Positions 28,514 to 30,372 of a stretch of 31,701 bases of DNA are shown one piece after another (position 1 is the first letter of the stretch; each line of letters opens with the position of its first letter). A model generated the notes under the pieces. It had not been told where the DNA came from and did not search any database. It saw only the letters and a list, made by a program, of their open reading frames with translations. This stretch comes from a plasmid. The stretch is taken from the sequence record NZ_LT960778.1. The stretch is one strand, 5' to 3'. A program made the position numbers and the translations under genes.

Positions 28514-29797
28514 TTAATCAATATAATGGGTACCCTTAAAATTTATAGGTTCAGTATGCTGATTTGTTCCTTTGAGGATTTGTCCACGGATGTTATCTTT
28601 TCTATTTGCAGTTTCTCCTACATTTCTGATTTTCCAGTACCATGTGATGTTTCTATGAGGACTAACAAAAAAATTTATTTTTGAATTCGTTTTAATAGGT
28701 ATTTTTAAAAAATTACGAATAGATCCTTTTCTAAAACCGTTCATTTCCAACTCTGCGTTTATTGTAACAATTTTTATATGCTCAGAAATTGCCCAATCTT
28801 TATCTTCTAAAAATTCCTCGGTATCTTTGGCATTTCCTATTGGCTTCCTTTTTTTTCTATTAGATATACTATTTATTACAATATTTTTAGTTTCATTACC
28901 TTTCTGAGTTTCATATATGGGAAACTTTTTGCCATATATTTTTATCCACTCATTTTCAGCAGTTGATTTATTCGCATACTCTTTAATTGCTTTTTGAGCT
29001 CTGTTCCAAGCTGTATTGGCTTTACTGTTAATTGATTCATCTAAAGATATGTTGTAACTATTGTCTAGTGAAGTAATTACATTTTGACACTCGGTGAAGT
29101 TGTAAAGCCATTTGAAAAAATCTCTTGACATTTCATCAAATTCACAAGATTCAATACTATCTATATTCCAAGTATCAACGAAATTATAAACTAATACGTC
29201 GATTGTTATTCCTGATATTTTAACGTTATTGTTGTTTTTCCAGGCACGTAACATTTTTGCGAATTTTTTTACAATTCCTTTATACTGCTTGTTTTTAGCC
29301 GTTAGAAGTTGTTGATCCCTATCAGGATTTGTTTTTTTCCACGAACCTTTATTATGTGTATCTGGAAACTCATAGCCATCTTCTCCTAATATTGGAAATG
29401 CTGGTAATATTTCAAATCCTATTCCATCTGAAAATTTAATGCTCACAATTTGTCCGTCTCCTTTAATTTGAGAAGTAGGATATACTTCTTTTAACTTAGA
29501 TTTAATGTCTTGTAGTAAGGCACTTTGTCCATTATTTAAATATGTTGTGAATCTTTGTTTTTGATTTTCTGGTAACTTTATTAATAAATCTACATCACTT
29601 AAATTTATAGCTGTTCCTCGTCCATAGGATCCAACCAATGTACTGTTTTTGCTTTCTGAATGTATTTCCCAATATTCTAAATTAATAACTTTAGTAATCT
29701 TAGCAACACGTTTCAAAATTATTTCTTCTTGTTCATCTGATGTTTTTAAATTTCTGATAAATTTTAAAAAATGTTTCTTAGCGTCAAATTCTTTCAT
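28514..29797 (-). CDS. Pol-beta-superfamily nucleotidyltransferase, SMODS/CD-NTase-like, with a basic C-terminal extension of about 150 aa
   Basis: GSYGRGTAINLSDVDLLI matches hG[GS]x9-13Dh[DE]h. The downstream segment ISGITIDVLV supplies the candidate third acidic residue. 427 aa. The start overlaps the stop of the upstream 2TM gene (ATGA), and SD AAAGGAG lies inside that gene. Confidence 0.55.
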   Translation of the reverse strand: MKEFDAKKHFLKFIRNLKTSDEQEEIILKRVAKITKVINLEYWEIHSESKNSTLVGSYGRGTAINLSDVDLLIKLPENQKQRFTTYLNNGQSALLQDIKSKLKEVYPTSQIKGDGQIVSIKFSDGIGFEILPAFPILGEDGYEFPDTHNKGSWKKTNPDRDQQLLTAKNKQYKGIVKKFAKMLRAWKNNNNVKISGITIDVLVYNFVDTWNIDSIESCEFDEMSRDFFKWLYNFTECQNVITSLDNSYNISLDESINSKANTAWNRAQKAIKEYANKSTAENEWIKIYGKKFPIYETQKGNETKNIVINSISNRKKRKPIGNAKDTEEFLEDKDWAISEHIKIVTINAELEMNGFRKGSIRNFLKIPIKTNSKINFFVSPHRNITWYWKIRNVGETANRKDNIRGQILKGTNQHTEPINFKGTHYID

Positions 29798-30372
29798 TTT
29801 CTGCTTTCTCCTTTATAATTATCAACCTTTAGTTTCTCAAGAATTTCACTACTAATAAATAAATTGTAATCTGTATTTATTTCATTGTCGTGTCTTTCTT
29901 TTAACTGTTTATTTGCTTTATCAACAGACCTATCAGAAGTAGGTACAGCTTCAGAATATAAAGAGAAGCGCTCTTGTTCTAGTTTTTCCCATATCAATTT
30001 AATTTCCTTGTCTGACTTAAGACCAAAAGCTAAATCTCTTAATGTATCTATTAGCTGATCACGTAGTTTTAATTGATTATTGGCATAGACTTTAGATTGT
30101 TTTGCCAATGCTTGAAAATCCCAAGCCTTCAATATTCCAGTACTAATAAAACTAATAAGCCCAACAAGAGCAGTAAAGATTTTAGCATAATAGGAATTAT
30201 TTATTAACGTAGTTATCGCCCCTGTAGAAGTTAATCCCGCAGTAACTAATTGAATCAATGTTAACCATCTATTTGAACTTTGATATGCCTCTGCTTGTTT
30301 TTCTTGTATTTTATGTGTCCAACCAACTCTAACAATAGCTTCAAGCAAAGCACTTTGTAAACCGTCTTTCAT
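29794..30372 (-). CDS. 2TM membrane protein (SLATT-like candidate effector) co-transcribed with the nucleotidyltransferase
   Basis: An N-terminal amphipathic helix, then two predicted TM helices (WLTLIQLVTAGLTSTGAITTLI and IFTALVGLISFISTGILKAW), then a coiled-coil tail of about 100 aa. It overlaps the NTase gene by 4 bp. Confidence 0.5.
   Translation of the reverse strand: MKDGLQSALLEAIVRVGWTHKIQEKQAEAYQSSNRWLTLIQLVTAGLTSTGAITTLINNSYYAKIFTALVGLISFISTGILKAWDFQALAKQSKVYANNQLKLRDQLIDTLRDLAFGLKSDKEIKLIWEKLEQERFSLYSEAVPTSDRSVDKANKQLKERHDNEINTDYNLFISSEILEKLKVDNYKGESRK

Follow-up and report, generated by a model that had tools for sequence, protein, structure and literature searches.

Record NZ_LT960778.1 is a plasmid of Latilactobacillus sakei, and its whole stretch of 31,701 nucleotides is the window analyzed here. 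Calling of open reading frames (ORFs) on the window placed two overlapping genes on the minus strand, one for a membrane protein of 192 amino acids (aa) and, downstream of it, one for a nucleotidyltransferase of 427 aa (Table 1). The original prediction, made from the letters of the sequence, had read this pair as a SLATT-like protein with two transmembrane segments (2TM) and a SMODS-type nucleotidyltransferase resembling cGAS and DncV (CD-NTase), together forming a candidate abortive-infection module similar to a cyclic-oligonucleotide-based anti-phage signaling system (CBASS). That reading has held up against family profiles, predicted fold, co-occurrence of the two genes in relatives, and a homologous pair with reported activity against phage. 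The cyclase gene in this particular record is a truncated member of its family, and both the assignment and the truncation are treated below.

An effector gene and a cyclase gene in one operon

The layout of the operon was read directly in the sequence and is as had been described. An ATGA at 29794-29797 forms a 4-base overlap of the SLATT stop codon and the cyclase start codon, and the Shine-Dalgarno sequence of the cyclase, AAGGAG, sits within the SLATT gene, 10 nt 5' of the cyclase ATG. The ATGA overlap is likewise present in the P0003 loci and in the lactococcal plasmid pUCCL631C. The G+C content of the module is 29.9%, versus 37.7% in the remainder of the window, and by base composition this would be consistent with an origin in a donor of lower G+C content.

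The 192-aa product of the upstream gene matches Pfam SLATT_4 (PF18186; 1.4e-26, 93.6 bits against a cutoff of 27), NCBIfam SLATT_4 (2.8e-28, 98.7 bits against a cutoff of 55), and the PADLOC 2TM effector model (6.4e-38). Hydropathy analysis gave two hydrophobic segments, at about residues 39 to 57 and 62 to 84, and the AlphaFold2 (AF2) model is made up entirely of helices (mean predicted confidence, pLDDT, of 81), so that the 2TM protein of the original prediction stands. The predicted layout is an N-terminal helix, a transmembrane hairpin, and a helical cytoplasmic tail. The protein is 100% identical to P0121, which is present on at least 44 contigs.

The downstream gene encodes a CD-NTase fused to an AGS-C domain. 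In the 427-aa product, Pfam SMODS covers residues 7 to 169 (1.9e-34, 119.7 bits against a cutoff of 26.5), Pfam AGS_C covers residues 324 to 426 (1.4e-17), and the PADLOC cyclase model PDLC00796 matches at 8.8e-108. The SMODS and PADLOC matches, like that of the neighboring protein to SLATT_4, are far beyond chance. The Pfam model NTP_transf_2, which works at the level of the superfamily, gave 30.4 bits. The NCBIfam equivalog CBASS_cyclase_b scored 130 bits against a cutoff of 200, and the cyclase is therefore not an equivalog of that particular model. The C-terminal extension noticed earlier is real, but it is not lysine-rich, since lysine makes up 11.8% of the C-terminal part versus 11.9% of the rest of the protein. 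Judged by its profile match, this C terminus is the immunoglobulin (Ig)-like AGS-C domain, a predicted sensor, although the pair had been described as having no sensor domain.

The DNA polymerase beta-type signature GS-x10-DVD, reported in the original prediction, lies in the motif GSYGRGTAINLSDVD, where G56-S57 are encoded at 29627-29632 and D68-V-D70 at 29588-29596. The four residues G56, S57, D68, and D70 show no variation across 53 homologs. The further acidic residue that had been proposed, D200, is also invariant in these homologs but is placed in a helix by the AF2 model. E129 (29411-29413; strand GFEILPAF) shows at least 90% conservation, with D in most of the other homologs, and lies on the core strand E127-135 of the model. 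These findings point to E129, and not D200, as the most likely third catalytic carboxylate. Conservation and modeling together indicate that the predicted catalytic set, GS...[DE]x[DE]...[DE], is intact in the window copy.

Fold analysis used the AF2 model of a full-length relative of 449 aa (P0001; pLDDT 89.3). When this model was compared with the Protein Data Bank (PDB) by Foldseek, all 50 of the matches listed were cGAS/DncV-like nucleotidyltransferases, comprising bacterial CD-NTases and one cGAS. The best among those listed was PaCdnD (6P82, 4.4e-16), followed by BfCdnB, EcCdnC, CdnE (EmCdnE), CdnG, DncV, and cGAS. With the solved enzymes 6P82 (CdnD), 7LJO (CdnB), 6P80 (CdnC), and 4TY0 (DncV), the window cyclase shares the fold, with E values of 4e-16 to 1e-8 and target-normalized template modeling scores of 0.5 to 0.8, as well as the GS/DxD/acidic arrangement of the active site, at a sequence identity of 10 to 21%. 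The profile of the cyclase family aligns to solved CD-NTase chains over profile positions 2 to 290, the closest being CdnD of P. aeruginosa (86 bits), with BfCdnB at 27 bits; no enzyme of clade F or H is among the solved structures. By sequence search, none of the solved chains carries AGS-C. The systems of CdnC (type III) and CdnD (type II) have HORMA or Cap2 regulators, none of which stands beside the window pair.

Table 1. Positions of the operon, its parts, and related features (window coordinates, unless a locus is named)
Feature	Position	Strand	Basis or remark
Effector gene, 192-aa SLATT_4 2TM protein	29794..30372	-	Pfam, NCBIfam, PADLOC, hydropathy, AF2
Cyclase gene, CD-NTase (SMODS) + AGS-C fusion, 427 aa ending ...GTHYID*	28514..29797	-	Pfam, PADLOC, Foldseek
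Translational-coupling junction	29794..29813	-	AAGGAG at 29808-29813, 10-nt spacer, cyclase ATG overlapping SLATT TGA
Catalytic core of the CD-NTase, from residue 1 to about 295	28913..29797	-	Conserved residues, family profile
AGS-C remnant, residues 324-425, final beta-hairpin gone	28523..28828	-	Pfam coverage, model
113-bp deletion junction	28522..28523	.	Alignment to pKCA54; BLAST alignment of the window with 13 loci
Operon leader, non-coding	30373..30534	-	GGGGA Shine-Dalgarno sequence at 30379-30383; one weak promoter-like site at 30412-30440
Flanking IS30-family element ISLsa1 (context only)	30535..31575	+	Inverted repeats of 30 nt (30535-30564, 31546-31575)
HsdS ORFs 5' of the pair	L005:2741-3994, L007:2732-3979, L014:2864-3970		Bacteroidota
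Plasmid defense cluster of the 65%-identical pair	L083:5678-7546, L084:5379-5989		

The pair in relatives and in known systems

Gene neighborhoods were surveyed at 78 genome loci that hold relatives of the cyclase, with 33 to 52% identity and from several phyla; the filter for the downstream gene admitted overlapping ORFs. At 68 of the 78 loci, a SLATT_4 gene lies directly downstream of the cyclase gene on the same strand. Nine further loci have an adjacent same-strand ORF of about 190 to 230 aa, most of these with three predicted transmembrane segments, and Pfam identified SLATT_6 in all three of the nine that were tested. Co-occurrence of the two genes in homologs had been put forward as a check on the original prediction, and the check came out in its favor, with SLATT_4 as the usual neighbor and mostly SLATT_6 otherwise. 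In these 78 genomes, the cyclase-SLATT pair is mostly chromosomal.

The order of the two genes is not the same throughout. The cyclase gene precedes the SLATT_4 gene at every one of the 68 loci with a detected SLATT_4 (loci within L003-L082). The order found here, SLATT_4 and then cyclase, occurs in the L. sakei plasmids, in their closest relatives, at 65% and 47% identity, and in the lactococcal plasmid pUCCL631C (window, L083-L087, and L099). Four-base overlaps are frequent in both orders. At many Bacteroidota loci, the cyclase-SLATT_4 pair begins 6 to 30 nt past the hsdS (Methylase_S) gene of a type I restriction-modification (R-M) system; in addition to the three HsdS ORFs in Table 1, similar ORFs of 370 to 445 aa occur at about 15 other Bacteroidota loci. 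In the Bacteroidota, the CBASS pair appears to lie within an R-M operon or to be attached to one. At other loci, HipA or an Eco57I-type methylase adjoins the pair. The 65%-identical pair is carried by Rep3/DUF536 plasmids, where the type IV restriction gene GmrSD follows directly downstream and the toxin-antitoxin pair PemK/MazE is close by; together they make up a small plasmid defense cluster. With hsdS, HipA, GmrSD, and PemK/MazE as neighbors, the related loci are linked to defense.

A minimal type I CBASS consists of a CD-NTase and a Cap effector, and the largest class of effectors is that of membrane proteins, SLATT4 and SLATT6 among them (PMC12480259). The description of the L. sakei pair as unusually minimal has therefore been dropped, since a cyclase plus an effector is the very definition of type I, and there is no need to invoke a new type of toxin and membrane-effector pair. 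An Ig-like AGS-C fusion is found on about 40% of type I CBASS cyclases, and operons with such fusions restrict phages in E. coli, where the phage cue is a prohead protease or scaffold; the role of AGS-C itself is still open (bioRxiv 10.1101/2023.05.21.541620). The E. coli EcCdnF04-SLATT6 and PspCdnB06-Cap15 systems (Richmond-Buccola et al., bioRxiv 10.1101/2023.05.21.541620) are two-gene operons of a cyclase and a membrane effector with an AGS-C fusion, as is the operon described here. SLATT_6 partners are common to EcCdnF04-SLATT6 and to relatives of the window cyclase. Unlike in the E. coli AGS-C operons, the effector in the window is SLATT_4 and the host is Gram-positive. Burroughs et al. 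reportedly predicted SMODS-SLATT conflict systems in 2015 and are said to be the source of the Pfam models SMODS, SLATT_1-6, and AGS_C; the window pair is architecturally identical to their scheme, in which a SLATT 2TM effector is paired with a SMODS nucleotide synthetase bearing an AGS-C sensor. A literature search found no mention of CBASS in L. sakei.

The lactococcal pair on pUCCL631C (genes pUCCL631_167/168, NZ_PP589692.1) is borne, like that of L. sakei, on a plasmid of a lactic acid bacterium, and anti-phage activity was reported for it in L. cremoris NZ9000 (Grafakou et al., NAR 2024, PMC11381338). It has a SLATT_4 gene (190 aa, PF18186) followed by an NTase/AGS-C gene, the same ATGA overlap, and the same Pfam families. 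When its cyclase is compared with the 449-aa form found in L. sakei, the C-terminal AGS-C motif HYVE.Y...VP is conserved. The identity between the two systems is 32% for the cyclase and 31% for the SLATT protein. The pUCCL631C cyclase, at 408 aa, has a shorter linker and a complete AGS-C domain, whereas the window copy is truncated.

A cyclase allele without its last 22 codons

The 427-aa ORF proved to be a truncated form of a 449-aa protein that is present in 13 other public copies, comprising 2 PLSDB plasmids and 11 contigs (NCBI, ENA, Logan); one additional cyclase gene runs off the end of its contig. In all 13, the 449-aa cyclase stands beside an identical or near-identical SLATT gene. Relative to every one of these copies, the window lacks 113 bp at 28522/28523, which hold the last 22 cyclase codons (...HYVEAYGLSEKTVEYFGKIEVPLEDI), the stop codon, and an intrinsic terminator. 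In BLAST alignments, the flanks of the 13 loci meet at 28523, with about 112 extra bases in each of the six copies that span the junction. The lost terminator hairpin, AAAAAAAGGAAGTCCAACAATTGTTGGACTTCCTTTTTTT, is perfect (-33.2 kcal/mol, z -9.2), and no terminator-like site is left within 28300-30700.

As a result, 22 residues are exchanged for 2, and the window protein terminates in HYID*. Pfam AGS_C is covered over positions 1 to 108 of 129 in the window copy versus 1 to 127 of 129 in the 449-aa form. In the AF2 model, the lost segment holds strands E424-432 and E435-444, the final beta-hairpin of AGS-C, and the motif lost with it, HYVE.YG...G.I.VPL, is kept down to relatives of 32 to 35% identity. 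That the gene belongs to the family is not in doubt; the window allele is a truncated member, lacking the complete AGS-C domain by which the CD-NTase-AGS-C subclass is defined.

The gap is either a strain-specific deletion or an artifact, and the window most likely holds an impaired copy or a sequence artifact. If the gap arose in assembly or sequence processing, the real plasmid would have the 449-aa cyclase and its terminator and would encode a normal, functional CBASS. We consider this possible but unlikely. The missing segment is present in all 13 other copies, and the six that span the junction are 99.4 to 100% identical to the window on both sides of it; the window is also near-identical to the plasmid record OZ061412.1, whose 31,814 bp equal the window length plus exactly 113, but scattered mismatches and two small indels separate these two sequences. 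Because of these differences, the window is an independent sequence, in which a real strain-specific deletion is possible. No database record of the exact 427-aa product was found, a long perfect hairpin lies in the missing segment, and the microhomology at the junction is 1 nt only, all of which would suit an artifact, whereas a clean loss of 113 bp is untypical of assembly errors. A comparable natural truncation is known from P0023, a relative of 402 aa with 49% identity that is present on 10 contigs (the longest of 67 kb); it ends in ...NMIRGHK, inside AGS-C and about 45 C-terminal residues short.

If the deletion is real, the window copy is probably impaired, since both the hairpin of AGS-C and the terminator are lost. 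An inactive cyclase would be expected rather than a constitutively active one, because the effector is in principle lethal. The sequence of P0023 weighs against impairment, in that truncations of AGS-C may be tolerated and may recur. It is conceivable, and in our view rather improbable, that the deletion is real and that the allele has been retained by altering the control of the cyclase, for example its phage specificity or activation threshold, and not by abolishing it. Were that so, the 449-aa and 427-aa forms would be a natural allelic series for probing AGS-C in type I CBASS. If the truncated allele is real, setting it against the intact one would offer an inexpensive way to learn what AGS-C does. 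The truncated AGS-C allele without a terminator is the only new observation made here; the architecture has been predicted since 2015, is already catalogued, is caught by standard defense finders, and has been validated in a related dairy plasmid.

Type I CBASS on a mobilizable plasmid

Taken together, the locus is very likely a type I CBASS anti-phage operon on a mobilizable L. sakei plasmid, with the window copy probably impaired. The basis for this is the domains of the two proteins, the intact catalytic motif, the CD-NTase fold, the operon, the pairing with SLATT, and the homology to a phage-active pair. With a CD-NTase, a SLATT_4 effector in the same operon, and no ancillary regulators, the pair has the genes of a type I system. 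When the other 24 ORFs of the plasmid were scanned with PADLOC, no Cap2, Cap3, or HORMA was found, and the flanks hold no ancillary CBASS gene; the absence of Cap2 and Cap3 agrees with what had been stated from the sequence. Among the 24 other ORFs, there was one match to the PADLOC TRIP13 model (5.5e-11), and the match set was not split by ORF; Pfam identified a distant ClpB/ClpL-like AAA+ ORF on the plasmid (AAA_2, ClpB_D2-small), and the TRIP13 match most probably comes from it. Type III CBASS was rejected in view of this origin of the match and of the absence of HORMA from the plasmid ORFs. A cross-match of this kind could push automated CBASS typing to type III.

A mechanism may be proposed by analogy with the family. 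The cyclase would be kept inactive until phage infection, when a presumed phage cue would be sensed, a step that AGS-C would probably aid. The site formed by G56-S57, D68-D70, and E129 would then turn nucleoside triphosphates into a putative cyclic oligonucleotide. This signal would switch on the SLATT protein, the cytoplasmic membrane would be compromised, and the infection would be aborted. We infer the cue, the identity of the nucleotide, and the mode of killing, and thus the chain as a whole, from other members of the family.

Several points weigh against the assignment. Cyclases of the AGS-C-bearing clade F gave no product in vitro (bioRxiv 10.1101/2023.05.21.541620). The phage-active homolog on pUCCL631C is only about 32% identical, and it is by homology to that pair alone that phage protection by the L. 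sakei pair would be predicted. The SLATT_4 model gave no fold matches in the PDB at E<=0.001. In the operon leader, promoter matches are no more numerous than in shuffled sequence, and for this reason the promoter of the operon is not established.

A plasmid addiction or toxin module has also to be considered, in which a lethal membrane protein under the control of a nucleotidyltransferase would stabilize the plasmid and not defend its host against phage. Several L. sakei, Lactococcus, and Rep3-type plasmids carry the pair beside partition and toxin-antitoxin genes, but across the phyla surveyed it is mostly chromosomal and often comes right after hsdS. Some type I CBASS operons are toxic on expression (bioRxiv 10.1101/2023.05.21.541620); however, the homologous lactococcal pair confers phage resistance (PMC11381338), and the MntA antitoxin model reached 14 bits against a cutoff of 60. 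An addiction module thus seems very improbable. A further idea, by which the 427-aa product would be an ANT/Lnu enzyme that modifies antibiotics or a nucleotidyltransferase of the AbiEii/DUF1814 type, standing beside an unrelated membrane protein, can practically be dismissed, since the generic polymerase beta fold signature and the superfamily-level NTP_transf_2 score would allow it, but the SMODS score, the conserved SLATT neighbor, and the cGAS/DncV-like fold matches do not, and the profile and Foldseek checks proposed for such clustering gave no ANT, Lnu, KNTase, AbiEii, or MNT identity in the Pfam, NCBIfam, or PADLOC output or among the 50 fold matches listed.

The type I CBASS operon had been placed in an accessory island rich in insertion sequences (IS), between a bacteriocin locus, an Apf pseudogene, and an IS30 element. 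These neighbors are indeed present, but what had been taken for an island is an entire plasmid, and a mobilizable one. Since loci of other records align without a break across its end and start, the window represents one circular L. sakei plasmid in full. The identity of the region is 100% with L. sakei plasmid pKCA54 and 99.9% with p332A2. Beyond the operon, there are genes for RepA, ParA/DUF5388, and a MobQ relaxase, nrd genes, and genes for a ClpB-like ATPase, CorA, and Dps, along with a sakacin-type bacteriocin locus with an ATP-binding cassette (ABC) exporter and IS elements. L. sakei plasmids from meat and fermentation spread type I CBASS beside a bacteriocin locus, which bears on the phage robustness of starter cultures.

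The module is flanked on one side by the IS30 element and on the other by the pseudogene and the convergent ABC exporter. At the position of the IS, the annotation of pKCA54 gives an IS30-like ISLsa1 transposase, and other plasmids have a resolvase in place of ISLsa1. The homology of the module to other plasmids stops at about 30538. The pseudogene, at 28222-28511(+), is a C-terminal coding remnant (...ANHESSGSYIAQNGNYYGKYKVSSSYLNSDY...WSNALNFWNKNG) broken by in-frame stops, which we take to be Apf-like. No Rfam families were found in the window.

Within the leader, a 52-aa ORF with a TTG start at 30369-30527(-) shares an ATGA at its end with the start of the SLATT gene and was considered as a third gene of the operon. 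It has no counterpart in the P0003 loci, which instead hold an unrelated 56-aa ORF without overlap, and it is probably spurious. A 14-nt inverted repeat, TGGGTACCCTTAAA (28527-28540) and TTTTAGGGTACCCA (30501-30514), flanks the module with 13 of 14 positions complementary, and one of its arms adjoins the deletion junction. The repeat is probably due to chance, as it is one among 13 comparable pairs in 3.9 kb. In the bacteriocin locus, two 156-bp stretches, 25068-25223 and 25340-25495, each show 92% identity to the counterpart of the other in pKCA54 and p332A2. The two correspond to paralogous bacteriocin genes of the leucocin A/sakacin P family, located 5' of the immunity and PedC/BrcD genes.

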